Assembly (NCBI GenBank): GCA_964650355.1
Contig: CAZYTL010000001.1
Coordinates: forward strand, 4,018-68,017
Source of the DNA: an uncultured Gammaproteobacteria bacterium
Lineage (GTDB): Bacteria > Patescibacteriota > Microgenomatia > CAYXHB01 > CAZYTL01
Length of the DNA stretch: 64,000 nucleotides
Direction of reading: 5' to 3'
The notes beneath the pieces are model-generated. The model was not told the DNA's origin. It made no database searches and worked only from the letters and a program-made list of their open reading frames with translations. This document shows, piece by piece, positions 24,241 through 49,937 of this stretch (its first letter is position 1; each line of letters starts with the position of its first letter). Made by a program: the position numbers and the translations under genes.

Positions 24241-24611
24241 TTACTTTCTTTCCTGAAAGGGTATTAAACCTTTCATTATTACCACTGGCTTCTTTAACGT
24301 ACAGTTTCAAGCTTTTACTTCTTTACCAAGATTGTCCTTAATTTCTTAAGAACTCTCTCCTGTATTTTATTTGGCTCAGGTTACCCCAAGGCCTTCAAGA
24401 GTAAGCAAGTAGTTTTATCTCTCCTTAGTCAGCACTCTCCTTATAGCCGTAACCACAAGGACTCTGGCCTAGCTCTATAGAAGAGCGACTTTGTGAAATA
24501 CAGGCTTACCCGTATTTTCATTAACAAAATCTAACTTGAAGTATAAAGAAGGAGAGCGTAAAAAATCAAGGGTAAATGCTATTTATAGACTTCATATTGA
24601 AGATTGGTAAT

Positions 24612-24642
24612 TTTTCAAAAAAAGCGACCCGCTTCGCGGGTC
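24612..24642 (-). terminator. GC-rich hairpin / rho-independent terminator just 3' of the VR
   Basis: gacccgc-ttc-gcgggtc forms a 7-bp GC stem. On the minus strand it is followed by gcttttttttgaaaa. It lies about 50 nt beyond the target gene stop. Confidence 0.6.
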
Positions 24643-24688
24643 AAGGGACCAAGAATCAAGAAACCAAAAGAACCAATAATTTAAGAGA

Positions 24689-32967: not shown

Positions 32968-32970
32968 AAA

Positions 32971-33019
32971 GGGGCTTGGGTTTTCCTACTTTCTTAAAAA
33001 ATAGAGAAACCTAAGCCCC
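32971..33019 (-). terminator. long stem-loop (13-bp stem) followed by T-run on the minus strand
   Basis: ggggcttgggttt...aaacctaagcccc. On the minus strand it is followed by tttttgttgg. It lies at the boundary between the portal gene and the defence cassette. Confidence 0.45.
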
Positions 33020-33035
33020 GATAGATTCGTTAGGC

Positions 33036-33060
33036 GGATTTATTTATGCCTTCAGAGTAC
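33036..33060 (+). repeat. left copy of about 24-bp imperfect direct repeat flanking the RM/SIR2-HerA cassette
   Basis: ggatttatttatgccttcagagtac compared with ggatttacttatgccttcagggttc at 44147..44170. Confidence 0.55.
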
Positions 33061-33173
33061 CGATTTACCAGTCAAATGGCTAGTTGTTTAATGTCACTAT
33101 GTGTAATTACCTAGTTGAAGCTATAAAAAGCTGTTGAAATAAATCGAATTTTTTTATATCCTATTGGTATATA

Positions 33174-33386
33174 TTGTTAAGTAAATTTATCAACAGTAAT
33201 ACTATGGAAGAACTTCTAACGATAGGCGAAGCCGCTCAGATTTTGAAGGTTCATCCCAACACTTTACGTTTGTGGGATAAAAACGGCATCTTGAAAGCTG
33301 TGAGAATTGGTGTGAAAAAAACTCGCAGATACAGAAAAGAGGATATCGAGAAGTTTATTAAAGAAGGTAAAAATAATAAGGAATAA
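33174..33386 (+). CDS. excisionase/MerR-like HTH DNA-binding protein
   Basis: LTIGEAAQILKVHPNTLRLWDKNGILKAVRIG is the MerR/excisionase-family HTH. The likely start is the ATG at 33204 (MEELLTIGEA...). It is a paralogue of ORF 48019..48213. Confidence 0.6.
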   Translation: MLSKFINSNTMEELLTIGEAAQILKVHPNTLRLWDKNGILKAVRIGVKKTRRYRKEDIEKFIKEGKNNKE

Positions 33387-33391
33387 AAACT

Positions 33392-35614
33392 ATGACTCAA
33401 GCTCAAAAACAGCAACTAGAAAAACAACTTTGGGCAGTTGCCAATGTTCTTCGAGGCAAGATGAATGCTGACGAATACAAGAACTATATCTTGGGGTTTA
33501 TTTTTTACAAATATCTTTCAGAAAAACTTGCTCGATACATAGATGAGAAACTATTATCCAACGAGAAGTTTGATTTTTCCGAAATTGATGAATCTAGCAA
33601 AGATGGTCAAAAAATCATTGATGCTGTCAAGAAAGCCTGTATTGATCACTTAGGATTTTTCCTTAAACCTAAGGACCTTTTCTCTTATCTCGTAAAGAAA
33701 GGTAATGGAGAAATTAAGAGTCAAAGCACCTTTATCCTAGAAAACCTTAAAGACGTTCTTAACTCCATTGAACAAACTTCTATGGGAACAGCTAGTGAAG
33801 ATGATTTCAAAGGACTTTTTGACGACGTGGACTTAACTTCATCCAAATTAGGTAAATCGGAAAACAAGAAAAATCAAGTAATTGTGGAAGTATTGACACT
33901 ACTTGGCGCTATTGATTTTAAGCTAGAAGATTCTAAAAGTGATTTACTTGGTGATGCTTATGAATACTTGATCGGAGAATTCGCAGCCGGAGCGGGTAAA
34001 AAAGGTGGAGAGTTCTACACTCCAGCCCAAGTTTCTAGATTGCTTTCTAAGATAGTGATTCGCGGCAAGAAAAAAATTAAATCTGTTTACGATCCTACTT
34101 GTGGATCAGGCTCTCTTCTACTTCGCATAGGCGAGTATGTAGATGTAAAGGCTTATTATGGGCAAGAACTAAACCCTACAACCTACAACTTAGCTCGAAT
34201 GAACATGATCTTGCATGGAGTCCACTTTGATGATTTCAGTATTCGCCAAGGAGATACATTAACCGACGACATGCACTTAGATTTAAAGGCAGAAGCAGTT
34301 GTTGCTAATCCTCCCTTCTCAGCTGACTGGAAGGGTGATAAAGACCCAGCTTTGGTGCACGATGAGAGATATTCTCAATACGGAAGATTGGCTCCAAAAA
34401 GCAAAGCAGATTATGCTTTTGTTACGCACATGCTACATCATTTATCTGATAACGGAATAATGGCTGTGGTTTTACCTCATGGTGCGCTATTCAGGAGTGG
34501 AGCTGAAGAACAGATTCGTAAATATATAATCGAAAAACAGAATTACCTTGATGCGGTAATAGGTTTGCCACCAAATATTTTTTATGGAACAAAGAAACCT
34601 TTTGCAATATTAGTATTTAAAAAATGTAGAAGCGAAGATCAAGACATATTTTTTATTGATGGTTCAAACGAGTATGTTGTTGGAGAAAAAAAGAACCTGA
34701 TGACAGATCAAAACATTAATAAAATATTTAACATATATGAAAATCGCCAAGAAATCGATGAATTTTCTTATAGAGCAAAATTATCTGAGGTAAAGAAAAA
34801 TAATTTTGACCTTTATATTTCTCGATATGTAAAAATAATTGAAAAAGAACAAGAAATCTCAATCGCTGAGGTTGCAAAAAAACTGTATAGACTTCAAGAG
34901 CTAGAACAACCCCATCAAGAAAGAGTTAAAAAATATTGCGATAAATTAGGATGTCCGCCTCCAATTGGATCTAATACTCAACTTCTTACCGATTATAAGC
35001 GTGGTTTAATTCAGAAGCTTTTTTCAAGAGAAATTAGGTTTAGAGATAAAAAACAGAAAGATTTTCCAGATTGGACAATCTATAAACTCGAGAATGTTTT
35101 ACACGAACATGGAAAAAAAAGTACCGGAAAAGAAAAAGTGTACTCTGTTTCTGTGCATAAAGGTTTGGTTGACCAGATTGAACATCTTGGAAGAAGTTAT
35201 GCAGCTAAATCAACAAGCCACTACAATTTAGTAAAACCAGGAGATGTTGTATACACAAAAAGTCCAACTGGTGATTTCCCTCTAGGAATTATAAAACAAA
35301 GCAAAATTAGTAAGACAGTCATAGTCTCTCCGCTTTACGGAGTATTTACCCCCAAAACATTTGATTTGGGATTTATTCTAGATGCCTATTTTGAATCAAC
35401 TGCCAATACGAACAACTACCTATCACCCATTGTTCATAAAGGTGCAAAAAACACCATTGCAATTACTAACAGCACTTTTTTGTCTGGCGAACTATCACTG
35501 CCTGTTTCTGAAGAAGAAATACAAATAGTTGCAGACTTTATAAGGTCTATTGACCAGATAATTCTCTTAAAGAGCGGATCTTTTTCGCAAAATGTCAAAA
35601 GTCACGAAGTTTAA
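33392..35614 (+). CDS. hsdM: Type I restriction-modification HsdM methyltransferase fused to a single-TRD HsdS specificity module
   Basis: HsdM motifs: SAM-binding VYDPTCGSGSLLL and catalytic VVANPPFS (NPPF). The C-terminal ~250 aa has HsdS features: conserved boundary DFPDWTIYKLENV, one target-recognition domain, and the terminal LPVSEEEIQIVADFIRSIDQII repeat. Confidence 0.75.
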   Translation: MTQAQKQQLEKQLWAVANVLRGKMNADEYKNYILGFIFYKYLSEKLARYIDEKLLSNEKFDFSEIDESSKDGQKIIDAVKKACIDHLGFFLKPKDLFSYLVKKGNGEIKSQSTFILENLKDVLNSIEQTSMGTASEDDFKGLFDDVDLTSSKLGKSENKKNQVIVEVLTLLGAIDFKLEDSKSDLLGDAYEYLIGEFAAGAGKKGGEFYTPAQVSRLLSKIVIRGKKKIKSVYDPTCGSGSLLLRIGEYVDVKAYYGQELNPTTYNLARMNMILHGVHFDDFSIRQGDTLTDDMHLDLKAEAVVANPPFSADWKGDKDPALVHDERYSQYGRLAPKSKADYAFVTHMLHHLSDNGIMAVVLPHGALFRSGAEEQIRKYIIEKQNYLDAVIGLPPNIFYGTKKPFAILVFKKCRSEDQDIFFIDGSNEYVVGEKKNLMTDQNINKIFNIYENRQEIDEFSYRAKLSEVKKNNFDLYISRYVKIIEKEQEISIAEVAKKLYRLQELEQPHQERVKKYCDKLGCPPPIGSNTQLLTDYKRGLIQKLFSREIRFRDKKQKDFPDWTIYKLENVLHEHGKKSTGKEKVYSVSVHKGLVDQIEHLGRSYAAKSTSHYNLVKPGDVVYTKSPTGDFPLGIIKQSKISKTVIVSPLYGVFTPKTFDLGFILDAYFESTANTNNYLSPIVHKGAKNTIAITNSTFLSGELSLPVSEEEIQIVADFIRSIDQIILLKSGSFSQNVKSHEV

Positions 35615-35620
35615 ATACAT

Positions 35621-38416
35621 ATGGCACAATCAGAACTACAACTAGAAAACGAATTAATATCTCAACTTAATACATTAGGTTTTGATATTGTTTCTATTCC
35701 CAACGTTGATTCGCTTCATCAGAATTTACAATCTCAACTTGAAAAATTCAATCAAACTAAATTCTCTGATCTTGAATTCTCTCGAATTTTAAACTACTTA
35801 ACTAAGAGTGATCGTTTTCAAAAAGCAAAAACTTTGCGAGATAGATTTGCCCTAAAGCGCGATGATGAAAGCACTTTGTGGGTACGCTTTTTCAACATGG
35901 ATAAGTGGTGTAAGAACGAATATCAAGTTACACATCAGGTTACCCAAGCCGGAAGATATGAGAATCGTTACGACGTAACTTTGCTTATTAACGGTTTGCC
36001 ATTGGTTCAGATTGAACTCAAACGTCGTGGTGTTGAAATGAAAGAAGCGTTTAATCAAATTCAACGCTATCATCGTCATTCTTTCACAGGGACCCTGTTT
36101 GAATATATTCAAGTATTTGTAATTTCTAATGGCGTTAACACTAAATACTTTTCGAATAATCCTAGACAATCATTTGAACAAACATTTTTTTGGACAGATG
36201 TAAACAATAAAAAAATAACTCAACTTAATGAGTTTGCTGATGTGTTTTTAGAAAAATGCTCTTTGTCAGCAATGATCGCTGAATATATTGTTCTTCATGA
36301 ATCACTTAAGATTCCAATGATCTTACGTCCCTATCAGTATTTTGCAGTTAAAGCTATTGAACAACGAGTAAAAGAATCAGATAAAAATGGTTACATTTGG
36401 CACACCACTGGATCTGGAAAAACTTTAACCTCATATAAGGCGAGCCAGATTCTCTCTCAGCTACCGGAAATTAAGAAGGTTTTATTCGTTGTTGATCGAA
36501 AAGATTTAGACATTCAGACCACCAAAGAATTTAATTACTTCTCTGATGGCTCAGTAGATGGTACCGATAACACACGAAATTTAGTTGCTCAACTTAAAGA
36601 TCCAAATCGAAAACTCATAGTTACTACCATTCAAAAACTAGATAGGGCTGTTTCGAGAGAATCATATATTCATCAATTTGAAGCTCTCCAAAATGAAAAA
36701 CTGGTCATTATTTTTGATGAATGTCACCGAAGTCAATTTGGATTAACACATTCAAGAATTAAAGGTGCTTTAAAAAATGCTCAGTTGTTTGGTTTCACTG
36801 GTACGCCAATCTTTGCAGACAACAATGTCGGTGGTGTAACTACCAAAGATGTGTTTGGCGAGTGTCTGCACAAGTACATTATCACTCATGCCATTGATGA
36901 TAATAATGTGCTCGGTTTTGCAGTTGAGTATGTTGGTAAATATAAGAAAAAAGATCAAGATACTTTGGACGCAGATATTTTTGCTGAAACTTTAGTAGAA
37001 GGTATTAATACCAAAGAAGTTCTTGAAAGCGATGAGCGTCTAGAAAAAATTACTGAGTACATTCTTCAAGATTGGAAACGAAAAACTAAAAAAGGTAAAT
37101 TCAACGCAATTTTTGCCACAAGCAATATTAGTGTTTTGAAAAGATACTACAAGTTGTTTGCTGACCAAAAACCTGACGATTTCAAAGTAGCGACAATATT
37201 TACTTATCAAGCCAATGAAGATGATAGCTCCGACATGCTTGACGTTGATATTTTTGCTGGTGAAGGTACTACCGGTAACCAACATTCTAGAGATTTCTTA
37301 GAGTCATGCATAAAAGATTACAACACTCTCTATGGAACAAATTATTCAACTGACCGCTTCTACGACTATTATCGAGATTTACAAAAACGAATTAAAGAAA
37401 AGCAAGTTGATTTAGTTATTGTGGTGAACATGTTCCTAACAGGTTTTGATAGTCCGAGACTCAATACCTTGTTCGTAGATAAAAACCTAAGATATCACGG
37501 TCTAATCCAAGCGTACTCACGTACTAACCGTCTACTTAATTCAGACAAACCACATGGGAATATTGTTTCCTTTAGGAATCTAAAACTAGCCACTGATAAA
37601 GCATTAGCATTGTTTGGTGATGAGAACGCTAAAGAAGTTGTTTTCAAAAAACCGTATGAGATTCAGAAAAAAGAATTTGAACAAAAATTATCAGAAGTAA
37701 AGAAAAAGGTTCCTACTGTAGATTCAGTTGATGATTTGCAGGGAGAAGAAGAAAAGGCTTCATTTGTTAAAAGCTTTAGAGATCTTTTGAGAATTAAATC
37801 CTCTCTAGAAACTTTTGCTGAATTTTCATTTGATGACTTAGGTATATCTGAGCAAGAATTTTATGATTACCAAAGCAAATATCTCGACATTCATGAAGAG
37901 CGCAAAAAACACGATCCTGAAAAGGAATCTATATTAGATCAAATCGACTTTGAGCTTGAACTTACAGTAAGAGATGTTGTTGATTTTGACTATATTATTC
38001 AACTTATTGCTGGGTTGAAAGACATTAGCTCAGATGCTGTTAGAGAAAAGAAGACTGAAGAAATCTTGAAGCTATTTGACCGTGATGTAAAACTTCGCAA
38101 GAAGAAAGAGCTAATCAAGAAATTTATTGAAGAAAATCTTCCCAAGGTTGGTAAAGATGGAAACGTCGAAGAAGCCTTTGAGAAATTCTGGTCAAGTGAA
38201 AGATCTACTGCTTTAAAAGATGTGGCTCAGACTGAAAATATTCCTCTAGAAAAATTTGAACAAGTTATTGGTGAGTACTTGTATACCCAAAAACTTCCAC
38301 ATAGTCAGGACATTATTGATCTACTCCCAGAAGCTCCCAAGATCTTAGAGCGTCAAGGAATCATCGATAGGATTAAAAATGCAATTGAAAATATAGTGGA
38401 TATTTTTGAATGGTAA
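35621..38416 (+). CDS. hsdR: Type I restriction enzyme HsdR (endonuclease/helicase subunit)
   Basis: N-terminal PD-(D/E)xK (DVTLLINGLPLVQIELK), helicase motif I HTTGSGKT, and motif II IIFDECHRS (DECH box). Confidence 0.8.
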   Translation: MAQSELQLENELISQLNTLGFDIVSIPNVDSLHQNLQSQLEKFNQTKFSDLEFSRILNYLTKSDRFQKAKTLRDRFALKRDDESTLWVRFFNMDKWCKNEYQVTHQVTQAGRYENRYDVTLLINGLPLVQIELKRRGVEMKEAFNQIQRYHRHSFTGTLFEYIQVFVISNGVNTKYFSNNPRQSFEQTFFWTDVNNKKITQLNEFADVFLEKCSLSAMIAEYIVLHESLKIPMILRPYQYFAVKAIEQRVKESDKNGYIWHTTGSGKTLTSYKASQILSQLPEIKKVLFVVDRKDLDIQTTKEFNYFSDGSVDGTDNTRNLVAQLKDPNRKLIVTTIQKLDRAVSRESYIHQFEALQNEKLVIIFDECHRSQFGLTHSRIKGALKNAQLFGFTGTPIFADNNVGGVTTKDVFGECLHKYIITHAIDDNNVLGFAVEYVGKYKKKDQDTLDADIFAETLVEGINTKEVLESDERLEKITEYILQDWKRKTKKGKFNAIFATSNISVLKRYYKLFADQKPDDFKVATIFTYQANEDDSSDMLDVDIFAGEGTTGNQHSRDFLESCIKDYNTLYGTNYSTDRFYDYYRDLQKRIKEKQVDLVIVVNMFLTGFDSPRLNTLFVDKNLRYHGLIQAYSRTNRLLNSDKPHGNIVSFRNLKLATDKALALFGDENAKEVVFKKPYEIQKKEFEQKLSEVKKKVPTVDSVDDLQGEEEKASFVKSFRDLLRIKSSLETFAEFSFDDLGISEQEFYDYQSKYLDIHEERKKHDPEKESILDQIDFELELTVRDVVDFDYIIQLIAGLKDISSDAVREKKTEEILKLFDRDVKLRKKKELIKKFIEENLPKVGKDGNVEEAFEKFWSSERSTALKDVAQTENIPLEKFEQVIGEYLYTQKLPHSQDIIDLLPEAPKILERQGIIDRIKNAIENIVDIFEW

Positions 38417-39602
38417 GAAAAATTTTATGAAAATTATAGACGATAAATCATTAGAAGAACTTAAAAATATAGTTCAAGATTGTAATGTAAACTTTTTACT
38501 TGGTTCAGGCATGTCCATGCCCTATCTTTCTACTCTTGGGAAAATTGAACAATTTTTAACAGAACTTGCACAAAAAAAAGAAAAAGGAGAAGTAACAAAC
38601 GAACAAGAAAAGATTATTAGAGTATCTTTGTATAAAAAATTTTTTGATGGCGCAATAGTAAAGAATTTAGATGTTCTAAAAGAAAGTGTTGATGCTAAGA
38701 AGGTATTGGATAACTACGAGAATTTTTTAGTAATTCTTAATTCTATTTTACTTAATAGAAAAAGCAGCATCCTAAATAAACAATTAAATATCTTTACAAC
38801 AAATGTAGATATTTTTTTAGAAAAATCACTGGAAAATACAAACGTAGAATATAACGATGGGTTTAGTGGAAGATTTTCTCCGAAATTTAATTTAACCAAT
38901 TTTAAAAAGTCGTTTTATAAAACTAGTCTTCATTATGACAATGTTTCAGAGCTACCAGTGTTTAATTTAATGAAAATTCACGGCTCACTGACTTGGGATA
39001 AAAGAGAGAAAGAAGATATTTTGTTCTCATCCAAACTAAATATTGTCGATAAAATTAAATCTAAAACAATAACTGGAAATACACTTATTGATATTGATGA
39101 TGAAGAAACAATAGATGAACTTATTACCAAAGCCAATACTAAGACCCCAGATTCGTCAGTAGATGAATTTATAGTTGAATACGAAAAGCTTGCGATTGTA
39201 AATCCGACAAAAGAAAAATTCAGAGAAACTGTTTTAAACAGAAATTATTATGAATTACTCAGGATTTATTCAAATGAACTTGAAAAAGAAAACACAATTC
39301 TTATTGTTGCTGGATTTTCATTCGCTGATGAACATATTCGAGATGTAACAATAAGAGCCGCCAATTCAAATCCAACTTTAAAAATCTATATACTTTCCCA
39401 TTCAAGTGATGCCGACGAAGGATCATTAATAGTCAAAGATAAGTCGATAAACGGCAATGTTGAGATTGTTGTACCACCGCAAAAGCAAGATGATCCTGAA
39501 CAAGAACCAGTAGATGAGTTCAAATATAACTTAAAAAACATAAATGAAAAAATCTTTACAGAATTACTTAAAAAGATTGGTGAGAGAAAAGAAGATAAAT
39601 AA
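38406..39602 (+). CDS. SIR2-family (NAD-dependent deacetylase-fold) defence protein
   Basis: FLLGSGMS (GxGxS Rossmann loop of SIR2), TTNVD (TTNYD-like) and KIHGS (HG catalytic His). The start overlaps the hsdR stop. An alternative start is at 38427. Confidence 0.7.
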   Translation: MNGKKNFMKIIDDKSLEELKNIVQDCNVNFLLGSGMSMPYLSTLGKIEQFLTELAQKKEKGEVTNEQEKIIRVSLYKKFFDGAIVKNLDVLKESVDAKKVLDNYENFLVILNSILLNRKSSILNKQLNIFTTNVDIFLEKSLENTNVEYNDGFSGRFSPKFNLTNFKKSFYKTSLHYDNVSELPVFNLMKIHGSLTWDKREKEDILFSSKLNIVDKIKSKTITGNTLIDIDDEETIDELITKANTKTPDSSVDEFIVEYEKLAIVNPTKEKFRETVLNRNYYELLRIYSNELEKENTILIVAGFSFADEHIRDVTIRAANSNPTLKIYILSHSSDADEGSLIVKDKSINGNVEIVVPPQKQDDPEQEPVDEFKYNLKNINEKIFTELLKKIGERKEDK

Positions 39603-39611
39603 TCCTAAAAC

Positions 39612-41471
39612 ATGAATAGCAAGCAAATACTCAAAGATTCTATATTCAAAGTTGGTAAGGTCATATCAGTTGATGGGCGAATTGTTAGAATAAAGGTTGA
39701 TAAAACAAAGAACTCTTCGAACTTACTATATAATGGCAAGTTGCTTAAAAATATTTCTGTAGGTGGGTATGTAAAAATAATCAAAGGTTTCACAAAGATA
39801 ATTGGCAAGGTCGATGGAGAATATATTAATGAAGAAAAAACCTTTTCAAATAAGGAATATGCAAGCGGAAAAGAAAAAATCAGCCGCGTGCTTAATGTTA
39901 GTTTGTTAGGTTTTTTTGGGGATAAAGGTTTTGAGAGAGGCATAAAAGAATTGCCTTTAATAGACAATGAGTGTTTTTTGCTTGAAAATGAAGAGTTTGG
40001 TTCAGTTCACCATTTTGTTAAAAAAGATGATGAGCCAATAACCGTAGGAAGTCTTTCTTTAGAAAAAGGTCAAGAAATCAAAGTTGGAGTTAATAGTTTG
40101 TTTGCGAGCCATATAGGAATTTTTGGGAATACTGGTAGCGGAAAATCATATACGTTAGCAAAAATTTATAGGGAATTATTTAAAAAGTATGAAGGGAGAG
40201 AAAATTTTCGGAACAATGGTATGTTTCTCTTGTTTGATTTTAATGGAGAATATGCAGATGAGAAGTGCATAATCGAAGGAAAAAAAATTTACAACCTAAC
40301 CACCAAAAAGACACTTAATACAATTAATAATGACGATAAATTTCCATTAAATGAGAATGACTTAATTGATTTGGAGCTTATTTCTATTCTTGCTAACGCA
40401 ACAGAAAAAACTCAGAGACCATTCTTATCCAGATCGTTAGACTTTTATAAAAAAATAAATGATGCCGATGACTCTCTTGAGTTTTTCAAAAATGTTTTAA
40501 AAAAACGGACAAAAGAAGTTCTAAGGATGGCAGATAAAGATAAAGCGCACGTTCTTATCGATTATTTAATTAATATTTTAGAAAAACCAGAAGAAAACTT
40601 AAACGAAGATCTTTTCGCCGCTATCGAATGGAACAATACAAATCATCACTTCATGCCTAGAAATGGCCAAAGCAGAGAATTAACGGATAGCGAAATTGAA
40701 GGAACAATTTTATATACATCCGCTAATAGCTATCAATTTCCCCAAAATATACTTACAAAAGTCATTCATTTTCTATACTTACAAGTAATTTTTGATATTT
40801 ACAACGACAAGGCTCAAAACGAACATATTGCCCCGGCCATTAATAAATTGAAGAGTAAACAAAAAGATATAGAGAAAGTTTTGAATACTAGCAGTACAAC
40901 CAACGACTTCTTTGTAGATAGCAATTTTGTGGTATTGAATCTTAAAGACGTTAATATCGAAATGAGAAAGACATTGCCTCTACTACTATCCAAAAAGGCT
41001 TATTCAGAACATAAACACAAACATAGACGAGATGAGAAGAAGTATTTAAATATTATTATTGATGAGGCTCACAATATATTATCCAAAGAATCTTTTAGAG
41101 AGGCTGAGAGCTGGAAAGATTATCGACTGGAAACATTTGAAGAGATAATTAAAGAGGGGCGTAAGTTTGGGGTCTTTCTAACAATAGCGAGTCAGCGACC
41201 CCATGATATATCCGCGACTATTATTTCCCAGCTGCACAATTATTTCCTACATAGATTGATAAATAATCACGACATTGTGGCTGTAGAAAGAACTATTGCT
41301 TATCTTGATAAATTGTCTGTTGAGTATTTATCTATTTTACCTACTGGTACATGTGTATTAGCAGGTTTGCTTGCACAGGTTCCTGTAGTTATTGATATTG
41401 GCAAAATAGAACCCAAAGAGCACGAACCTAACAATAAAACTATCAACTTAATAGAAAGTTGGAGTGACTGA
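39612..41471 (+). CDS. herA: HerA-like hexameric ATPase/helicase
   Basis: Walker A GIFGNTGSGKSYT, Walker B LNIIIDEAHN, FLTIASQRP, and an N-terminal HAS-barrel-like region. It sits immediately after the SIR2 gene. Confidence 0.75.
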   Translation: MNSKQILKDSIFKVGKVISVDGRIVRIKVDKTKNSSNLLYNGKLLKNISVGGYVKIIKGFTKIIGKVDGEYINEEKTFSNKEYASGKEKISRVLNVSLLGFFGDKGFERGIKELPLIDNECFLLENEEFGSVHHFVKKDDEPITVGSLSLEKGQEIKVGVNSLFASHIGIFGNTGSGKSYTLAKIYRELFKKYEGRENFRNNGMFLLFDFNGEYADEKCIIEGKKIYNLTTKKTLNTINNDDKFPLNENDLIDLELISILANATEKTQRPFLSRSLDFYKKINDADDSLEFFKNVLKKRTKEVLRMADKDKAHVLIDYLINILEKPEENLNEDLFAAIEWNNTNHHFMPRNGQSRELTDSEIEGTILYTSANSYQFPQNILTKVIHFLYLQVIFDIYNDKAQNEHIAPAINKLKSKQKDIEKVLNTSSTTNDFFVDSNFVVLNLKDVNIEMRKTLPLLLSKKAYSEHKHKHRRDEKKYLNIIIDEAHNILSKESFREAESWKDYRLETFEEIIKEGRKFGVFLTIASQRPHDISATIISQLHNYFLHRLINNHDIVAVERTIAYLDKLSVEYLSILPTGTCVLAGLLAQVPVVIDIGKIEPKEHEPNNKTINLIESWSD

Positions 41472-42985
41472 TGAATATGACATTATCTAAATCCGACTAC
41501 ATGCTTTTTCTTCGTCACCCAGCTTGGCTGTGGTTGAAGAAGTTCAACAAAAATAAACTTCCCCCGATTGATGAGGATACGCAGGCTTTATTTGACGCTG
41601 GTCATGAATTTGAAAGTTACACAGAAAAGCTGTTTCCTGATGCCATCCGTTTAGGTTTTAACAATTTCGATGAGTATCTTTCACTACCCAATAAAACCCT
41701 TCAAGAGATTAATAGTGGCACTCAAACTATTTTTCAAGGTCGATTAGAGATAGATGGTTTAACTTGTATTTTTGACGTTTTGCAAAAAGTTGGGGAGAAG
41801 GAATTTGACTTAATTGAAATAAAAGCCACTACCAGAGCTAAGCCAGAACACGAATACGATCTAGCATTTCAACTGTTAGTTTTGGAGAGGTCTGGTTACT
41901 CGGTTAGAAATATTTCTGTTGTTCATGCCAATAAAGAGTATGAGAGAAATGGGGATATAGATCCAAAACTTCTTTGTGACCAAACTAATATCACTGAAAA
42001 AGTAAAAGCTCTGAGAGAAGTAACTGAGCAACAGGTATCTGCAGCTCAGACGATGCTGGGCGAAAAAACAATTCCTGACATTTCTCCTCGGTACGTGAAC
42101 AAAGTTAACATTCCTGGCGTTTCTCAATGGTTCCAAGAATGGCTGGATATCTACAAGATACTGAAACCAAATAATGATCCCTACAATATTTACGAGCTTA
42201 GTTACCCTAGTGCTGAACAAATAGCTAGTTTAGAGGACGAGGGCATAACAAGGATAGCTGATGTGCCTGATGAGTTAGTTTTAAGACCAAAACAATTTGC
42301 TCAAGTAAAAACCACCAGAGAAGATAGGCCAATTTTAGATAAAGAAAAGATCAGAGAATTTTTAGATTCTTTTCAGTACCCACTTTACTTTTTTGATTAT
42401 GAAACGATGTCCTCAGTAGTCCCCGTGTTTGATCGCATGAGCCCTTATAAAGACTATCCATTTCAGTACTCCTTGCACGTTCTTCGATCCCCAGATGCTG
42501 AAGTCGAGCATCATGAATATCTGCATTCGGAGAATTCAAATCCGATGCCAAGACTTCTTAGTCAGCTCACACAAGATATTGGCAATGAAGGCACTGTTCT
42601 CACTTGGAATATGAGTTATGAAAAAGGATGCAATGACCGCATGGTCGCACTATACCCAGAATATTCAGAGTTTTTGGCAGAACTTAACGAGAGAATAAAT
42701 GATCTAATGATTCCATTCTCTGAGATGTGGTATTTCCATAAGGATTTCTTTGGTAGTGCATCAGTTAAAAAAGTAATGCCTGTATTGGCTCCTGAGTTAA
42801 GTTACAAGGAGCTCAATGTTGGCAATGGACTCCTTGCTAGGAGAATGTGGACCCAAACTATTTTAGAAGACAAACACCAAGATCAACGAGATAAAATTAT
42901 GGAGGATTTGAGCAAATATTGCACTCTAGATACATTTGCTATGGTTCGAATTTTGGAGGTATTGAGGGAAATTATTAATGAATAA
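41471..42985 (+). CDS. predicted two-domain nuclease (PD-(D/E)xK-like N-terminus + DEDD/RNase H-like C-terminus; DUF2779-like)
   Basis: N-terminal IFDVL...DLIEIKAT (D...ExK). C-terminal YFFDYETMS (Exo I FDxET) and YCTLD (Exo III YxxxD). Its ATG overlaps the HerA stop (tgaTGAatATGa), which implies translational coupling. Confidence 0.5.
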   Translation: MNMTLSKSDYMLFLRHPAWLWLKKFNKNKLPPIDEDTQALFDAGHEFESYTEKLFPDAIRLGFNNFDEYLSLPNKTLQEINSGTQTIFQGRLEIDGLTCIFDVLQKVGEKEFDLIEIKATTRAKPEHEYDLAFQLLVLERSGYSVRNISVVHANKEYERNGDIDPKLLCDQTNITEKVKALREVTEQQVSAAQTMLGEKTIPDISPRYVNKVNIPGVSQWFQEWLDIYKILKPNNDPYNIYELSYPSAEQIASLEDEGITRIADVPDELVLRPKQFAQVKTTREDRPILDKEKIREFLDSFQYPLYFFDYETMSSVVPVFDRMSPYKDYPFQYSLHVLRSPDAEVEHHEYLHSENSNPMPRLLSQLTQDIGNEGTVLTWNMSYEKGCNDRMVALYPEYSEFLAELNERINDLMIPFSEMWYFHKDFFGSASVKKVMPVLAPELSYKELNVGNGLLARRMWTQTILEDKHQDQRDKIMEDLSKYCTLDTFAMVRILEVLREIINE

Positions 42986-43021
42986 CTGTAATAAGTCATG
43001 ATTGAACTTAAAATAAAATAA

Positions 43022-44113
43022 ATGAAAAATGTTTCATCAATTGTCAGATTTTGCATTCTACTAGCCTTATTATTTGGTTTGATCTATACAAACAAGCAAC
43101 TCGGTGAGACTAATGCACGACTGGAGAAAGTTGAGATCAAGCTTGGCGGTGCAGAAAAAATTGATTGCAACGAAAAGGATTCCATTGAAAAAGTTCGTCA
43201 ATCTGTCGTTAGAATCATCGGGGGAGAAGCTGAAGGATCTGGTTTTGCTATTAAATCAGGTGGAGTAATTCTCACAAATTTCCATGTTATCGAGTTTGAA
43301 CCCACGCCGAAGGTTGTCTTACCAGATAATTCATTCGAAACAGCAGAAGTGCTTATGGCTGATAAAAATGCAGATCTCGCCATAATAAAGATCAATAAAG
43401 AATTGCCTGTTATTTCTTGGGGTGAGCCATCAGAACTTGATCCGGCAGAAGAATTACTTGCCATAGGCTTTCCGTTAGGTGGTCAGCTTAGCGGTGAAGC
43501 ATCGGTTAACAAAGGCTCCCTTTCTGGGCGAAGAAGGTCGAAAGATGTCGGTATCGAGTACTTACAAACTGATACTACTTTGAATCCTGGAGTAAGCGGT
43601 GGGCCTATGATTAATATTTGTGGCGAGGTAGTTGGTATAAACACAGCTGGTCTATCTGGATTAGGCCTTGGTATATCTTCCGACTCAATTAAGCAAAAAT
43701 GGCTTGAAATGGCCACGGCAGAGGATCCATTGGCTGATGTTCAGAAGATTGACTTTAAACCCGAGGAAAGCTCGTTAGAGGCGGTCAGAGCGTTCTATAA
43801 CTACCTCAAGGCTCGCAAACTAGAGAAAGCATTTGATTTGCTGTCAGATAATTTTAAGAAAGGTTATGATTTTGACTACTGGAAACAGGGGTATGAACCC
43901 CTTCTAGACACCAGTGTTATTAAAATCGAGGATGACCCAGAAATAGAAAATAGGGTAATTATCAAGCTGTCAACTAAGGACTTCGTTGATGAGGAAATTG
44001 TTTATAAGTACTTCGAGGGCTATTGGGACGTTAAAGATGTTGATGGTCGCTGGTTGCTTTGGGACCCTGAAATAAAAGAGGTAGATCCAGATTTTCTCTG
44101 GTTCTATGAATAG
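43022..44113 (+). CDS. membrane-anchored/secreted trypsin-like serine protease (S1 family)
   Basis: N-terminal transmembrane/signal helix. Catalytic triad context: TNFHV (His), DLAII (Asp), GVSGGP (Ser). Confidence 0.65.
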   Translation: MKNVSSIVRFCILLALLFGLIYTNKQLGETNARLEKVEIKLGGAEKIDCNEKDSIEKVRQSVVRIIGGEAEGSGFAIKSGGVILTNFHVIEFEPTPKVVLPDNSFETAEVLMADKNADLAIIKINKELPVISWGEPSELDPAEELLAIGFPLGGQLSGEASVNKGSLSGRRRSKDVGIEYLQTDTTLNPGVSGGPMINICGEVVGINTAGLSGLGLGISSDSIKQKWLEMATAEDPLADVQKIDFKPEESSLEAVRAFYNYLKARKLEKAFDLLSDNFKKGYDFDYWKQGYEPLLDTSVIKIEDDPEIENRVIIKLSTKDFVDEEIVYKYFEGYWDVKDVDGRWLLWDPEIKEVDPDFLWFYE

Positions 44114-44146
44114 ATATCATGAAAATTAAACACGAGACGATATTGG

Positions 44147-44170
44147 GGATTTACTTATGCCTTCAGGGTT
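44147..44170 (+). repeat. right copy of about 24-bp imperfect direct repeat
   Basis: ggatttacttatgccttcagggtt, with 21 of 24 positions identical to 33036..33060. Confidence 0.55.
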
Positions 44171-44185
44171 CTAGTTGAGTTAAAT

Positions 44186-46564
44186 CTAAAACATTCTTCG
44201 ACTTTGTGTCTTGATTTTGGCCTTCCAAACTTCAAAAATAAATTTATTAACATCTTCTTCGTTTACTAAGCGTACGATGATTTCATTGGATCTTCCCAGC
44301 ATTGGTACTCTGTTGTATCTATCCCTAATGGCCTCTACTAAGCCATAAACTTCCATCATTAGTTGTTTTTCTGTAGGAGATGACAACTTGACTCCGTCAG
44401 GAACATCAGAAAACCATTTATTGGCATAAGCTTTCTCAAATGGTTTGATGAACTCTTTCAGATAGTTAACAATTCCCATTTTATCTTGCTTAAGTGCCAA
44501 TATCCCAATAAAACATGCTCTCTCCATGATTCTGGGTTCTGTAAATCCATAACTATCTCCGGTTTCTTTTGTGAGCATTTTACTTGCAAAATTATTGATT
44601 ATTTTGATTGCGTCCCTGGCGACTTGGTCTTGGTTTTTCTGCAAAGCTCTAATACCAATTTTTGCTGCTGCCTCGACAAGAGAGTCAAGTGATTGATCTT
44701 TCCTAATTTTTTCTACATCGTGAGTAAACCACTCAGTCTGGAAGATGTACCAACCTACTTGTTTTAATAATTCTTCCTTATCTTGTTGCCACTTCTCATC
44801 TTCTGTTAAATCTAAAAGAAGGCATCCGATATCTGCAATTAAGTTTCCAAAAGTGTTCACCAACAAATGGTTGGGGTTTTTCATTTTTTCTGATAGATAG
44901 CGTAGCGTAGAGCGAAGTTCTTCAACAACCACAAAGAAGATTCCTTTCCATTCTTTGCGGTCATCTTCCTTTTTTGCACTATTAGCAGCTTTTGCAATTT
45001 GAAAGATCAAAGATGACGTATTTTCAAATGGGTTGGATAGGTTGGTTTGCATTACGAAGCTGCTGTCTAGAGCTCCCGCCATCATGGAGAGGTAAGCATA
45101 ATAAATTATTTGTCTAAGATGTTCCCACAAAGAACCCAATTCCATCTCTAGGTTGAAGTATTTAGAAGTTATAAGTTGAGTTAATATCGAGTTGTAAGTA
45201 TTAATGACCTCACCTAACACAACATTGTATTTATTTCCCAAAGCACTGAAGGCAATTTTATCGAGCATCCCGTAAATTGAGATGAACTCATAGTGGAGAT
45301 TTTGCTTTATTGCAATAGGAGCTATCTGACCGTAAGCGACTGCACCTTGAAATAAGGCTTCTTGATATTTAAATTTGATCGCGCTTTGAAGTAGTTGATC
45401 GAGGTAACCTCGACACTGTTCCATTATTGGACTTTCTACCTTTCTTTTGGTTAGGTAGTTAATTTGACTAGCAGATTGAGATAATTGGACAAAAATGTTA
45501 ATTACTTGGGTTATTCCCTGGTTATCATTTTCTCGCATATAGTTTTCACCAACGGCAACCAGCCTCTCTAGAGGCGGAGTCAAGAAAGCTCTTGAATCAC
45601 TAGTTGTTGCAAGCACAAATCCTGCAGGTAACACGAAAGAAGAATCTTTTCTAACTTCAAAATATTTTTGCAAAATACTTGTTATTACTTGTAATACTTG
45701 AAGTGCAGAGCTCCTTTCGTTTGTAGACACAAGTCGATCATGGTAATCGAAAAGATAATTTAGCCTGCTATTAATGTAAGCAAATTCTGGCTGCATGTAC
45801 TGAAAAGATGTCGCCAGAGCTTCTTGTTTAGTTACCTTTTTATCTAGCTTTGGTTGTTTCATTAAGACATCAGCTATTTCTTGAGCTCGCTTGTAAATAG
45901 ATTCAATTTTATGAAGAGCTTGCTCTGAAGCGATTTTCAAAACATTGTTAGGGTTCAGCCTAGTCCTAACTCTCTGATAGAGGATAAATGTTAGGTAGAA
46001 AACAAAACCTACTAAAATTAAGGAGAGCTGAAGCGAGGCTGTCGATAGCCCTAATCCAAAATTCCCAAAGAGCAGAGAAAAGGAAAAGACAACCAAGGCA
46101 CAGGCACTAATTAAGAAGAAAATTAAATCATGGACATTATCTTTCGCGGCAGTTTCATAAAACCCTACTGGTATTCTCTCAGCAGCGTTTCCCATAAGCA
46201 AAATGCTCAAAGAAAAAATTATTGCCAAGATTCCACCAATCATAGCTGCTACTGCAGTAAAAAAGGTCAGAGCATCACTTCTGTCAAAGATTGAAATATA
46301 AGGGCCAAGAAAATAAACCAAACAAAGGAGAAGAACAAAATATAACAATCCGCCAAGCAAGTTCCTTTTCGACTTTAAGTAAAGAGACAATCTGTAGCGA
46401 ATAAAATTTAGGATCCTAAGCTTAATCAAGTAGAAATAGAAAACTGCTGTTTTCTTGAGAGATCTCAGCTGACTCAACAACTTTTTCTTGTTTTGAAAAA
46501 ATAATCTACAGACTTTTTTTGAGCCTTTCAAAAATGATTGTTTAGAGGATTTCTTTTTTGCCAT
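44186..46564 (-). CDS. large multi-pass membrane protein with long cytoplasmic domain (candidate defence effector)
   Basis: 792 aa. The N-terminal basic leader is followed by about 4-5 hydrophobic helices, then about 600 aa of soluble domain with no known motif. It is the last gene of an HTH-led operon. Confidence 0.45.
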   Translation of the reverse strand: MAKKKSSKQSFLKGSKKVCRLFFQNKKKLLSQLRSLKKTAVFYFYLIKLRILNFIRYRLSLYLKSKRNLLGGLLYFVLLLCLVYFLGPYISIFDRSDALTFFTAVAAMIGGILAIIFSLSILLMGNAAERIPVGFYETAAKDNVHDLIFFLISACALVVFSFSLLFGNFGLGLSTASLQLSLILVGFVFYLTFILYQRVRTRLNPNNVLKIASEQALHKIESIYKRAQEIADVLMKQPKLDKKVTKQEALATSFQYMQPEFAYINSRLNYLFDYHDRLVSTNERSSALQVLQVITSILQKYFEVRKDSSFVLPAGFVLATTSDSRAFLTPPLERLVAVGENYMRENDNQGITQVINIFVQLSQSASQINYLTKRKVESPIMEQCRGYLDQLLQSAIKFKYQEALFQGAVAYGQIAPIAIKQNLHYEFISIYGMLDKIAFSALGNKYNVVLGEVINTYNSILTQLITSKYFNLEMELGSLWEHLRQIIYYAYLSMMAGALDSSFVMQTNLSNPFENTSSLIFQIAKAANSAKKEDDRKEWKGIFFVVVEELRSTLRYLSEKMKNPNHLLVNTFGNLIADIGCLLLDLTEDEKWQQDKEELLKQVGWYIFQTEWFTHDVEKIRKDQSLDSLVEAAAKIGIRALQKNQDQVARDAIKIINNFASKMLTKETGDSYGFTEPRIMERACFIGILALKQDKMGIVNYLKEFIKPFEKAYANKWFSDVPDGVKLSSPTEKQLMMEVYGLVEAIRDRYNRVPMLGRSNEIIVRLVNEEDVNKFIFEVWKAKIKTQSRRMF

Positions 46565-46570
46565 ATATTG

Positions 46571-47284
46571 CTATTCCAACCAACCAAAATCTTTGTTTAA
46601 ATATTTTTTATCGATTTGGTTGTTTATCTCTTTTCTAACTTTTTCTTTGGATCCGGTTCTTTTTAGTTCCAAAACATTCGGAACTTTGTTTTGTTTATAA
46701 AGAAAAGCAATTTCTCCAACGTTTATATACCCGATTTGGATATCTAGATTCAATACTGTTAAAGAAACGATTGTATCTGGGGTCGTTTGTATGATTTGAA
46801 GAGCCCATACAGCGAATTTTATTTGATGTTTGATCAAAAACTGGTTTACTTCTTGGTAATTAGGTTCTATACCATCTTCAACTTTCACTAGGAGCACGTA
46901 TTGCTCACCGTACTTCGTATATTTTGAGTTAATTTTGTCAGATGACAGAAGTTGTTGTAGTAATGTTTGCCCATTTTTAGCATCGTATCGAGTTAGTTCT
47001 ATTGTCGAAATATCAAAATCTCCCAGACGCTCTTTTGATTCTTGTCCGATGTAACCATCAGGAGGATCTTGTTTAGACACTTGGACAAGGGGCAACTCGT
47101 GCGTTTTTTTGTTCAATGCGTAAATAGCTAAGGCGGTGAGGGAAAGATCGTATGACTCTATTAATTTTTTATATTTTCGCTCTTTCTTTAGTTGTTCTAT
47201 TCCTTTATTTTGAACCAATTCAACACAACACTGATGAATAAAGGCAGGACAGAACCAGATCTTGTTAGGGTGTTTCCATGCCAT
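46571..47284 (-). CDS. hypothetical protein (operon partner)
   Basis: 237-aa ORF spaced 3-6 nt from its neighbours. Confidence 0.4.
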   Translation of the reverse strand: MAWKHPNKIWFCPAFIHQCCVELVQNKGIEQLKKERKYKKLIESYDLSLTALAIYALNKKTHELPLVQVSKQDPPDGYIGQESKERLGDFDISTIELTRYDAKNGQTLLQQLLSSDKINSKYTKYGEQYVLLVKVEDGIEPNYQEVNQFLIKHQIKFAVWALQIIQTTPDTIVSLTVLNLDIQIGYINVGEIAFLYKQNKVPNVLELKRTGSKEKVRKEINNQIDKKYLNKDFGWLE

Positions 47285-47287
47285 AAA

Positions 47288-48022
47288 TTATTTCTTTATA
47301 TAATTTTGTTTATACTTTTTTTGAATTTCTTTTAGACGATACGGCTCGAATCTAGAAAGGTAATCAATAACTAAGGCTACGTGATGCTTAGCATTATTTT
47401 CTACATGGTGATACATCCAAGTTTCGTCATTCAATTTGCCAGAAATTGTGTTGAGTATTTTCTCTATTGTTTTAAATAACTCTTTAACTTCAGCAGCACT
47501 AATACTAGGCAATTTTGGTTTTCTAACGTCGTCGTGAACAAGCCACTTGTCTCGATAGGTTTTCGCTTTTTTGATAGCTTTGTTTTGTTTTTCAAGCATT
47601 TTTCTTATTAAAGCTAGATCTGAATATTGCAAACCTTTGTACCTCTCTGTTAGTTCTTTTAAGAGTTGACGATCTTGATTGTATTCAGTGAAAGCATCAA
47701 TTGTTAAGTGTTTTAGTTTGCTCTCCGTGAAGTTAACAATTTTGTTGATATGCAGTGACTGATCTGATACATCTAGGAGCTTTCCCAATTCAAGGAAAAA
47801 GTAAGTGCGGAGCGCTTCCTGAGTAGGAACAAAAAAATTCCTATATTTATCCATGGTTTTTACATTTGCTTTTGCGCGTGATGGTCCAACAACGTTTGGA
47901 GCTGCAGCTTCCTTCATTCCTTCGTAAGCGTAAAAAGCAGATAGGGCGTGGAAATATCTACTTTGCAACTTCTTGATGTAGGACATTAGGGTTTTGAATT
48001 CTGTATTTTTTGGTTTGGTCAT
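47288..48022 (-). CDS. hypothetical alpha-helical protein with Rx5H (HEPN-like) motif
   Basis: 244 aa. YRDKWLVHDD gives R-x5-H in an all-alpha context, resembling HEPN/AbiU2-type proteins. Confidence 0.4.
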   Translation of the reverse strand: MTKPKNTEFKTLMSYIKKLQSRYFHALSAFYAYEGMKEAAAPNVVGPSRAKANVKTMDKYRNFFVPTQEALRTYFFLELGKLLDVSDQSLHINKIVNFTESKLKHLTIDAFTEYNQDRQLLKELTERYKGLQYSDLALIRKMLEKQNKAIKKAKTYRDKWLVHDDVRKPKLPSISAAEVKELFKTIEKILNTISGKLNDETWMYHHVENNAKHHVALVIDYLSRFEPYRLKEIQKKYKQNYIKK

Positions 48023-48213
48023 GTATTTTTCGTTTTGATAAATTGATCGATAGATTTTGGATCATATCTTCTATCCCCGCGCTCGTTTACTTTAATTGCT
48101 TTTAGTTTTCCGCTCTTATCCCATCGCCTAAGGGTCTCGACATGAACATTCAAAACTTCCGCCGCTTGGCGAATATTTAGTAGTTTCGGTAATGCAATGT
48201 TTTTCTTCGACAT
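48019..48213 (-). CDS. excisionase/MerR-like HTH DNA-binding protein (paralogue of 33174..33386)
   Basis: LLNIRQAAEVLNVHVETLRRWDKSGKLKAIKV. It overlaps the start of the downstream gene by 4 nt. Confidence 0.6.
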   Translation of the reverse strand: MSKKNIALPKLLNIRQAAEVLNVHVETLRRWDKSGKLKAIKVNERGDRRYDPKSIDQFIKTKNT

Positions 48214-48269
48214 AACTCAACTTAATTATACAAAAATATAGCCTAAGTTGATATACTTGTAATACAACC

Positions 48270-49922: not shown

Positions 49923-49937
49923 ATAAAACCAGGCAAT

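Follow-up and report, generated by a model that had tools for sequence, protein, structure and literature searches.

The window, by which is meant the whole stretch of 64,000 nucleotides that was analysed, contains a plus-strand gene array in the order HTH_17, HsdM-S fusion, HsdR, SIR2, HerA, DUF2779 and trypsin-like protease. The array lies in a (pro)phage, with the terminase side on one hand and the portal gene on the other, and terminase, portal, major head protein and endolysin genes were found. The features are as follows:

33174..33386, plus strand: HTH_17 / MerR-excisionase-like small DNA-binding protein (Pfam HTH_17, E = 6e-13; NCBIfam excisionase-family domain)
33392..35614, plus strand: type I methylase fused to one HsdS half (Pfam N6_Mtase, E = 8e-102, and HsdM_N; PADLOC MTase_I, E = 5e-155)
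35621..38416, plus strand: HsdR, type I restriction subunit (PADLOC REase_I, E = 6e-297; Pfam HSDR_N, SWI2_SNF2, T1R_D3-like and EcoR124_C)
38427..39602, plus strand: predicted SIR2 NADase (PADLOC SIR2 PDLC04080, E = 3e-66; Pfam SIR2_2, E = 2.7e-9)
39612..41471, plus strand: predicted HerA ATPase (PADLOC HerA PDLC04097, E = 1e-182; Pfam DUF87, E = 2.6e-22)
41471..42985, plus strand: DUF2779 two-nuclease protein, 504 aa, conserved start probably the ATG at 41477 (Pfam PF11074, E = 2e-38)
43022..44113, plus strand: predicted membrane-anchored trypsin/HtrA-like serine protease (Pfam Trypsin_2, E = 1e-26)
44186..49922, no strand: second variable region, missing from the related loci L011 and L001
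within 44186..49922, strand not given: proteins of 792 aa and 237 aa, no assigned function
47288-48022, minus strand: AbiU2 HEPN protein (Pfam HEPN_AbiU2, E = 9e-14)
48270-49922, plus strand: 550-aa protein of the second variable region, no assigned function

The restriction-modification system is of type I: HsdM and HsdS (as the HsdM-S fusion) and HsdR are co-oriented and have strong Pfam and PADLOC matches, and a PADLOC Specificity_I match covers residues 530-727 of the fusion. The HTH_17 gene, which also stands at the head of the islands in L005, L006, L008 and the P0086 locus, is the conserved left border of the variable slot, and its predicted product is likely a regulator of the operon. 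The GC content changes in steps, from 0.309 in SIR2-HerA to 0.347 in the restriction-modification genes, 0.382 in DUF2779 and 0.41 in the phage.

The SIR2-HerA pair and the DUF2779 protein

The SIR2 product carries GSGMS (residues 26-30), TTNVD (124-128) and IHG (184-186), and HerA carries a Walker A motif, GNTGSGKS (172-179), and a Walker B motif, IIIDEAH (481-487), confirming the motifs that the initial annotation had read in both proteins (GxGxS, TTNVD and HG in the one, Walker A and B in the other). The HAS-barrel-like N-terminus of HerA is likewise borne out, since the PADLOC HerA match spans residues 10-618 and thus takes in the barrel region. The SIR2 reading frame had been drawn from 38406; a frame does exist there, and the TTG at 38406 is a possible start, but the ATG at 38427, 10 nt past the HsdR stop, is the more likely one, because homologues align from it. 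The two genes lie on one strand, SIR2 first, with a gap of 9 nt. In a set of 43 loci anchored on HerA, SIR2 precedes HerA in all those whose upstream sequence was available, except L137; this set comprised 14 metagenome loci, in which HerA is 55-82% identical to the present one, and 29 viral-contig loci, in which it is mostly 31-44% identical, two fragmentary matches being higher. With its SIR2 motifs, its adjacent and co-oriented HerA with Walker motifs and its conservation as a unit, the pair belongs to the SIR2-HerA systems, and as both sequences score well under the NCBIfam equivalog cut-offs, it is a divergent member.

Characterised SIR2-HerA systems work with two genes (PMC11472057, PMC11514289), and their activity is modulated by DNA ends (PMC13434337). 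The present pair shares their gene order, intact motifs and strong full-length model matches, and differs in its setting, a Patescibacteria (pro)phage in which it is placed between a type I restriction-modification system and DUF2779. By extension from the characterised systems, it would be a self-contained two-gene abortive-infection system in which the HerA ATPase controls an NAD+-depleting SIR2. The known system has no third gene, and none is supported at this locus either; the pair is one more divergent member, in a Patescibacteria phage, and otherwise offers nothing new.

The 504-aa protein downstream of HerA matches the DUF2779 profile PF11074 at 131.8 bits (cut-off 23.3) over profile positions 1-126 of 126. 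It has a Cas4-like PD-(D/E)xK domain at the N-terminus and a DEDDy 3'-5' exonuclease domain at the C-terminus, the layout that the initial annotation had proposed from short motifs; structure matches agree with it, and the PD-(D/E)xK core and C-terminal acidic residues are intact here and invariant among homologues. The family has been classified as RNase H-like family F.17 (PMC3985635) and includes MMSYN1_0389, a quasi-essential protein of the minimal Mycoplasma JCVI-syn3.0 (PMC13621843). The present protein has the same Cas4/DUF83-like PD-(D/E)xK plus DEDD(y) layout as described in these two papers, with the same D...ExK, DxE and Y-x3-D residues and no four-cysteine cluster; both cover the domains only, whereas a position at the end of defence operons that begin with a restriction-modification system, as seen here, is absent from them. 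Only two cysteines, C99 and C484, are invariant among the homologues. An assignment as Cas4 was rejected (Cas_Cas4 scores 17.8 bits against a cut-off of 22.7), the resemblance being one of fold only, and no cas genes occur among the annotated neighbours. The NCBIfam UU173-family model is matched at 47 bits, far short of its cut-off of 225. Protein searches returned at least 3,621 DUF2779 homologues, a family for which PADLOC has no model.

Cassette borders and DUF2779 neighbourhoods

DNA comparison places the breakpoints of the SIR2-HerA cassette at gene borders, 38436 and 41475. The sister phage L011 is homologous up to 33318 and again from 41486. In L005, L019 and L021, HsdR shows about 77% DNA identity that ends at 38415-38438, and homology is found again in DUF2779 from 41474-41478, the cargo between the two being different; in L091 and L092, homology is limited to SIR2-HerA itself (38433-41428), with 74% DNA identity in SIR2 from 38433. 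The DUF2779 homology to L001, L011, L014 and L024 starts at 41475-41486. Judged from these comparisons, DUF2779 is the conserved right border of a cargo slot, and the slot that precedes it, bounded upstream by the last restriction-modification gene, is occupied in sister elements by Gabija, by a DUF4365 protein or by an AAA_13 (RloC-like) protein, or contains no cargo. As in a phage-borne defence hotspot, the island lies in a phage genome, its flanks are 90-95% identical to those of L011, L001 and L012, and its cargo is replaced. This (pro)phage of a Patescibacteria (CPR; Woesebacteria-like) bacterium bears a modular defence island with an ordinary two-gene SIR2-HerA system as a swappable cassette.

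The closest relatives of the DUF2779 protein (82-96% identity) come after Gabija or a DUF4365 protein, not after SIR2-HerA. Loci L001 (DUF2779 93% identical) and L002 (82%) have the order PLD-SNF2, methylase, GajA, GajB, DUF2779, and L005 (84%) has the same type I system as here, followed by Gabija and DUF2779. A layout of HTH_17, restriction-modification system, optional two-gene system and DUF2779 is repeated elsewhere, with restriction-modification of type I, type III, type ISP/MmeI-like or PLD-SNF2 with methylase. HsdR is followed directly by DUF2779 in L006, L008 and L009 (gaps of 17, 18 and -4 nt), type III-like Mod-Res comes before DUF2779 in the P0086 and P0036 loci, and in the P0101 locus a type ISP enzyme and four small genes precede DUF2779. 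When DUF2779 copies are clustered at 70% identity or more, cargo differs within each cluster, and even relatives of 31-35% identity have type I restriction-modification genes within a few kb.

Across 76 DUF2779 loci, the gene just upstream encodes HsdR, GajB, HerA, MmeI-type methylases, GmrSD, Schlafen-type helicases or AAA_13 proteins; it is co-stranded with DUF2779 in 66 of the 76, lies no more than 60 nt away in 51 and overlaps DUF2779 in 18. Defence-like genes make up 43% of the neighbours at position -1, 38% at -2, 11% at -5 and 3% at +1, an asymmetry that is somewhat overstated because the defence labels come partly from a reference set of upstream genes. Pfam matches downstream of DUF2779 include a few Mrr, GmrSD and NERD genes.

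Readings of the DUF2779 nuclease

The initial annotation had raised the possibility that SIR2, HerA and DUF2779 form one three-gene defence system, with DUF2779 as its dedicated DNase or RNase effector, translationally coupled to HerA. The stop codon of HerA, the TGA at 41469-41471, indeed shares a nucleotide with an ATG at 41471 (TGATG), with GGAG 6 nt upstream; DUF2779 homologues and DNA homology begin at a second ATG, 41477 (MTLSKSDY...), so the two genes either overlap by 1 nt or are 5 nt apart. The claimed overlap is thus present in the DNA, but the conserved start is not the overlapping one, and comparably tight junctions occur elsewhere between DUF2779 and unrelated upstream genes. SIR2-HerA also lies directly upstream of DUF2779 in four further loci (L050, L052, L060 and L076), and since the activity of SIR2-HerA is modulated by DNA ends (PMC13434337), interaction of the pair with a nuclease that processes such ends is plausible. 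Against this, characterised SIR2-HerA works with two genes, the recombination breakpoints lie exactly at the cassette borders, and none of the 43 HerA-anchored loci carries a DUF2779 relative within the available flanks, while among the 76 DUF2779 loci HerA is the upstream gene in 4 (GajB in 8, HsdR in 6). The five SIR2-HerA-linked DUF2779 copies are 49-66% identical among themselves and do not cluster together, whereas each has relatives of 75-96% identity on other cargo, the nearest adjoining Gabija, GmrSD, methylases or DUF4365, indicating independent insertions in one slot and not an inherited unit. Absence of the third gene from homologous loci, together with unrelated neighbours elsewhere, had been named as the outcome that would tell against the proposal, and this is what the co-occurrence analysis returned; a three-gene system is therefore highly improbable.

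The likely reading is a modular phage-borne island in which SIR2-HerA is a swappable two-gene cassette and DUF2779 is the constant last gene, serving the whole island and not SIR2-HerA specifically. DUF2779 would then be co-transcribed with whatever gene precedes it, and is probably a DNA-end-processing enzyme common to DNA-cutting defences. One chain is predicted to combine a 5'-end (Cas4-like) and a 3'-end (DEDDy) nuclease, and DNA ends left by the upstream DNA-cutting systems may be degraded or processed by it. RecBCD and AddAB degrade restricted DNA, and by analogy DUF2779 could play the post-restriction role that they have in other bacteria; the proposed likeness lies in nucleases acting on both strand ends of restriction-made linear DNA, but DUF2779 has no helicase motor. 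It is a tentative extension that DUF2779 is a so far unrecognised and widely shared accessory nuclease of immunity in small-genome bacteria, a motor-less, two-ended exonuclease co-expressed as the last gene of operons of at least four restriction-modification types and of embedded SIR2-HerA, Gabija, Shedu and RloC-like cassettes, which finishes or processes ends, replaces RecBCD/AddAB and is needed for full protection.

Alternatively, DUF2779 might be a housekeeping repair or recombination nuclease of small-genome bacteria that has no defence role and acts as a conserved homologous-recombination anchor where cassettes gather. The Saccharibacteria copies (about 50% identical) lie among the housekeeping genes FKBP, NTPase_I-T, AhpC and SDR, away from any defence genes, core genes (BipA, for one) are among the downstream neighbours, copies from many lineages show 60-96% identity with varying cargo, and the breakpoints fall at its 5' end; quasi-essentiality in JCVI-syn3.0 (PMC13621843) further suggests that the family may have a general role in DNA metabolism and be only a recombination anchor here. 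Against this, several genomes have two copies on different mobile elements (in JACKFW01, a prophage and a serine-recombinase island), DUF2779 is located inside mobile elements, between HTH_17 and recombinase and not flanking them, and it is co-oriented and tightly packed or overlapping with the last gene of four restriction-modification types; we consider a purely housekeeping role possible though doubtful. That DUF2779 belongs to the phage or mobile element itself, for example as a RecE/lambda-Exo-like recombination exonuclease or an anti-defence factor, serving the element and not host immunity, is improbable: it matches no PHROG family, many copies are in non-mobile chromosomal contexts, and it is always 3' of defence genes, not in replication or recombination modules.

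Defence hotspots in phages and satellites such as P2 and P4 were reportedly described by Rousset et al. in 2022. The present island resembles these in having conserved flanks and interchangeable defence cargo among close phage genomes; it differs in its Patescibacteria host, in its position between the terminase side and the portal gene, and in that one flank is a nuclease gene also found with restriction-modification outside phages. Solo Cas4-family nucleases are known beside restriction-modification in DPANN archaea, with UvrD-Cas4 accompanying type III systems, and solo Cas4 is over-represented in the small genomes of Patescibacteria and DPANN (PMC5704561). These and the Argonaute-associated ACE1 (PDB 9iac) are, like DUF2779, non-CRISPR Cas4-family nucleases beside DNA-targeting defence, but DUF2779 has an extra DEDDy exonuclease domain and its Cas4 similarity is remote, below the Pfam cut-off. 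A connection of DUF2779 with restriction-modification in Patescibacteria appears not to have been reported before, and it makes a large uncharacterised family a candidate restriction-modification partner. If functional in defence, DUF2779 would help to account for the disposal of restricted DNA in bacteria whose DNA-repair equipment is minimal. The HTH_17/restriction-modification/cassette/DUF2779 layout is also a predictable slot in Patescibacteria genomes and phages, in which uncharacterised genes, such as the DUF4365 protein and proteins of 205-260 aa at position -1, are likely to be defence genes.

Beyond DUF2779, the trypsin-like protease has 91-100% protein identity in L001, L011-L014, L024 and L025, and is thus kept with DUF2779 in the phage lineage, outside SIR2-HerA. 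Homology to L011 breaks at 44112 and picks up at 49938, on either side of the second variable region, and a homologue of the 550-aa protein there (43% identity) directly follows DUF2779 in L076.

The SIR2-HerA cassette and its borders

The window is a (pro)phage, which besides the genes listed here encodes a 1,800-aa tail-region protein, phage methylases and a sigma factor. Its island (33174-49922) is flanked on one side by the terminase region and on the other by the portal gene, and begins with seven close-packed plus-strand ORFs lying head-to-tail (33174-44113); the rest of the window consists mostly of minus-strand genes. ORF identities were taken from Pfam, PADLOC and NCBIfam.

Phage genes and the gene array of the island
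14721-16385, endolysin
18812-19978, major head protein
31060-32967, portal/adaptor
33174-33386, plus, HTH_17/MerR-excisionase-like protein
33392-35614, plus, type I methylase fused to a specificity half
35621-38416, plus, HsdR
38406/38427-39602, plus, SIR2 (PADLOC E = 3e-66)
39612-41471, plus, HerA (PADLOC E = 1e-182, full length)
41471-42985, plus, DUF2779 protein (PF11074 E = 2e-38; sub-threshold Cas4 match at aa 98-183)
43022-44113, plus, trypsin/HtrA-like protease
55208-56764, large terminase (phrog_675, E = 1e-91)

All of the motifs cited in the initial annotation were found in the encoded proteins, and the stop codon of HerA shares a base with an ATG, as it had stated (TGATG). Homologues of the DUF2779 protein start at the next ATG, 41477 (MTLSKSDY...), and DNA homology to sister loci begins at 41475, so that the two genes either overlap by 1 nt or lie 5 nt apart. 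The SIR2 gene most likely starts at ATG 38427, 10 nt past the HsdR stop. A promoter and terminator scan of 32900-44400 yielded no more sites than shuffled sequence and was uninformative on operon structure. SIR2-HerA here is an ordinary two-gene system that appears to be intact.

The pair is a discrete cassette (~38427-41470) that fills the slot between HsdR and DUF2779, as defined by the borders of DNA homology and by steps in GC content. The closest genome (L011, a Woesebacteria MAG), whose DUF2779 protein is 96% and protease 100% identical, matches the window DNA at 31507-33318 (90%) and 41486-44112 (94.6%); between these matches a PLD-SNF2 protein, a methylase and a DUF4365 protein replace the type I restriction-modification genes and SIR2-HerA. 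Three loci (L005, L019 and L021) have window-like HsdM and HsdR (~77%, ending at 38415-38438) and match the window DUF2779 from 41474-41478, with Gabija or an AAA_13 protein in between, and two others (L091, L092) match SIR2-HerA only (38433-41428, 74%). GC content, at 0.309 for SIR2-HerA, 0.347 for the restriction-modification genes, 0.382 for DUF2779, 0.41 for the protease and ~0.40 for the phage backbone, steps in agreement with the DNA homology borders. The HsdR-DUF2779 slot is nested inside a larger one running from HTH_17 to DUF2779. Cassette sites of an integron-like or att type were rejected because the border junctions (10 nt; -1/5 nt) are too short to contain them, which makes homologous recombination in the conserved flanking genes more likely. 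Sister phages (L001, L011-L014, L024, L025 and the IMG/VR contigs L105 and L106) have likewise kept DUF2779 and the protease and changed the cargo.

In three of them the position before DUF2779 (L011:8331-10004, L024:8297-9955, L025:8301-9959) holds a protein of 552-557 aa whose N-terminal domain is DUF4365 (restriction-endonuclease-like) and which may form a single-gene defence system. Homology to L011 is lost again in a second variable region (44113-49937), which is also lacking in L001. Besides an AbiU2 HEPN protein (47288-48022), it encodes two proteins (792 aa and 237 aa) that match no family and a 550-aa protein (48270-49922) of unassigned function; the last may be an uncharacterised defence gene, since in locus L076 a homologue (43% identity) comes straight after DUF2779.

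The DUF2779 protein and the genes that precede it

The two nuclease domains that the initial annotation saw in the third gene are borne out by an alignment of 31 sequences (60-93% identity to the window protein), in which the invariant residues include D102, E116, K118, Q134, D309, E311, E384, D411, Y483 and D487, and by an AlphaFold model (pLDDT 86) that matches two groups of structures. This fold comparison was made because a PDB sequence search with the DUF2779 profile gave no meaningful match; a PHROGs scan gave none. A true Cas4 was ruled out by a Pfam score below the cut-off, the presence of only two invariant cysteines rather than an Fe-S cysteine set, and the lack of nearby cas genes, and with it a CRISPR-linked role. 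The architecture was predicted in 2014 as RNase H-like family F.17 with a DUF83 domain (PMC3985635) and re-analysed in 2026 in MMSYN1_0389, a quasi-essential protein of JCVI-syn3.0 (PMC13621843). Both SIR2-HerA and this domain architecture of DUF2779 are already known. The literature on DUF2779/PF11074 gave domain-level descriptions only, our searches under both names found no report of a link to restriction-modification or defence islands, and PADLOC v2 has no DUF2779 model.

The search found at least 3,621 homologues; the top 120 show 60-93% identity and come almost entirely from Patescibacteria. Patescibacteria-type loci also occur in MAGs labelled Pseudomonadales, Gammaproteobacteria, Flavobacteriales, Omnitrophota and Woesearchaeota (including JACKFW010000001.1, L012, L015, L016, L019, L024 and L025); these labels appear to be taxonomic errors or the product of contaminated bins, and the isolate name HK-STAS-PATE-15 suggests Patescibacteria.

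The Pfam-annotated surroundings of ten close homologues were read.

Genes preceding DUF2779 in close homologues
P0001 (93%), P0002 (82%): PLD-SNF2, methylase, GajA, GajB
P0004: same type I system as the window, Gabija; serine recombinase after DUF2779
P0007, P0117: HsdM, HsdS, HsdR
P0042: HsdM, HsdS, Shedu, HsdR
P0086, P0036: type III-like Mod-Res
P0101: type ISP enzyme, small genes
P0065: no obvious restriction enzyme at the locus

A scan of GTDB genomes returned at least 529 relatives; the 80 best loci were retained, and 76 non-redundant ones served for the statistics. The upstream gene lies on the same strand in 66 of the 76; it is no more than 60 nt away in 51 and overlaps DUF2779 in 18. 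It is a UvrD/GajB helicase in eight loci, HsdR in five or six, a protein with a ResIII domain (HsdR and other helicases) in 11 and HerA in four; MmeI-type methylases, Schlafen-type helicases and DUF4365 proteins account for three each, and AAA_13, C5 methylases and GmrSD for two each. The fraction of defence-like neighbours is 43% at position -1, falls to 11% at -5 and is ~3% at +1, as labelled with a reference set drawn mostly from upstream genes; Pfam does detect a few Mrr, GmrSD and NERD genes downstream. DUF2779 is a conserved terminal gene common to many restriction-modification systems and the defence cassettes embedded in them.

The role of DUF2779

The initial annotation raised the possibility that SIR2, HerA and the third gene form one system, a reading we consider very improbable. 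SIR2-HerA precedes DUF2779 in four loci besides the window (L050, L052, L060, L076), and the five linked DUF2779 copies share only 49-66% identity, while closer relatives (75-96%) of every copy accompany Gabija, GmrSD, methylases or DUF4365; cargo varies inside every DUF2779 cluster at 70% identity or more. Compared by sequence, these associations are independent insertions into one slot. The reverse comparison also told against an integral third gene. A single-protein HerA scan of metagenomes, for which poorly conserved peptides were chosen, gave only 14 loci (HerA 55-82% identical), with SIR2 upstream of HerA wherever upstream sequence exists, heterogeneous downstream genes and DUF2779 in none. 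An alignment-based scan of viral contigs, added as a supplement, gave 29 HerA loci (mostly 31-44% identical, with two fragmentary matches higher) and DUF2779 within 6 kb of none, even with 76 diverse DUF2779 queries. Absent from these HerA loci and preceded mostly by other genes, DUF2779 shows the distribution that the initial annotation had named as refuting an integral third gene.

The locus can be described as a defence hotspot or island in which an uncharacterised accessory nuclease recurs. DUF2779 is probably transcribed together with the genes before it. Since it joins a 5'-end nuclease to a 3'-end exonuclease, it would act on the DNA ends left by the DNA-cutting systems encoded upstream, degrading or processing them in a RecBCD/AddAB-like clean-up. 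Such end-processing would fit the reported influence of DNA ends on SIR2-HerA activity (PMC13434337), and a clean-up role would fit the distribution of solo Cas4-family genes, reported to be over-represented in Patescibacteria and DPANN archaea and, in the latter, to adjoin restriction-modification systems (PMC5704561). The main rival, a housekeeping nuclease that serves solely as a passive anchor for recombination, seems to us possible but rather unlikely. It draws on the quasi-essential family member in Mycoplasma and on Saccharibacteria copies (~50% identical) amid the housekeeping genes FKBP, NTPase_I-T, AhpC and SDR. However, several genomes carry two copies, duplicates reside on mobile elements, and DUF2779 is tightly co-oriented behind four types of restriction-modification system. 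Outside this phage lineage the same module is found in mobile elements of other kinds: in islands bounded by HTH_17 and a serine recombinase and adjoining uvr genes (L005, L008), beside Prim-Pol (L006) or beside type IV secretion genes (L009).

In its housekeeping surroundings in Saccharibacteria (L066, L075, L084, L077), DUF2779 repeatedly adjoins an NTPase_I-T (DUF84, inosine/xanthosine triphosphatase) gene, a hint that it is connected with the metabolism of nucleotides or DNA precursors.

Further features of the phage and related loci

Two metagenome contigs (L101, Ga0334883_1004142; L102, Ga0334884_1004592) carry SIR2-HerA inside a type I restriction-modification operon, in the order HsdM, small gene, HsdS, SIR2, HerA, 530-aa gene, HsdR, a further case of SIR2-HerA carried in restriction-modification loci. 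Among the phage structural genes of the window, adjoining the portal, a minus-strand gene of low GC content (29201-30763, GC 0.358) encodes a 520-aa TPR and HEPN_LA2681 protein (E = 2e-31), probably another defence or abortive-infection moron. Two minus-strand phage genes (57338-58597 and 59429-60526), for a ParB-like nuclease-methyltransferase fusion and a C5 cytosine methylase, probably protect the phage from host restriction. The window also holds a diversity-generating retroelement (22659-26632, minus strand), in which every mismatch within the repeat is at an adenine of the template copy.

Diversity-generating retroelement
22659-23696, minus, reverse transcriptase (Pfam RVT_1 E = 5e-29)
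~24108-24229, template repeat
~24702-24823, variable repeat, at the 3' end of a 647-aa gene (24689-26632)
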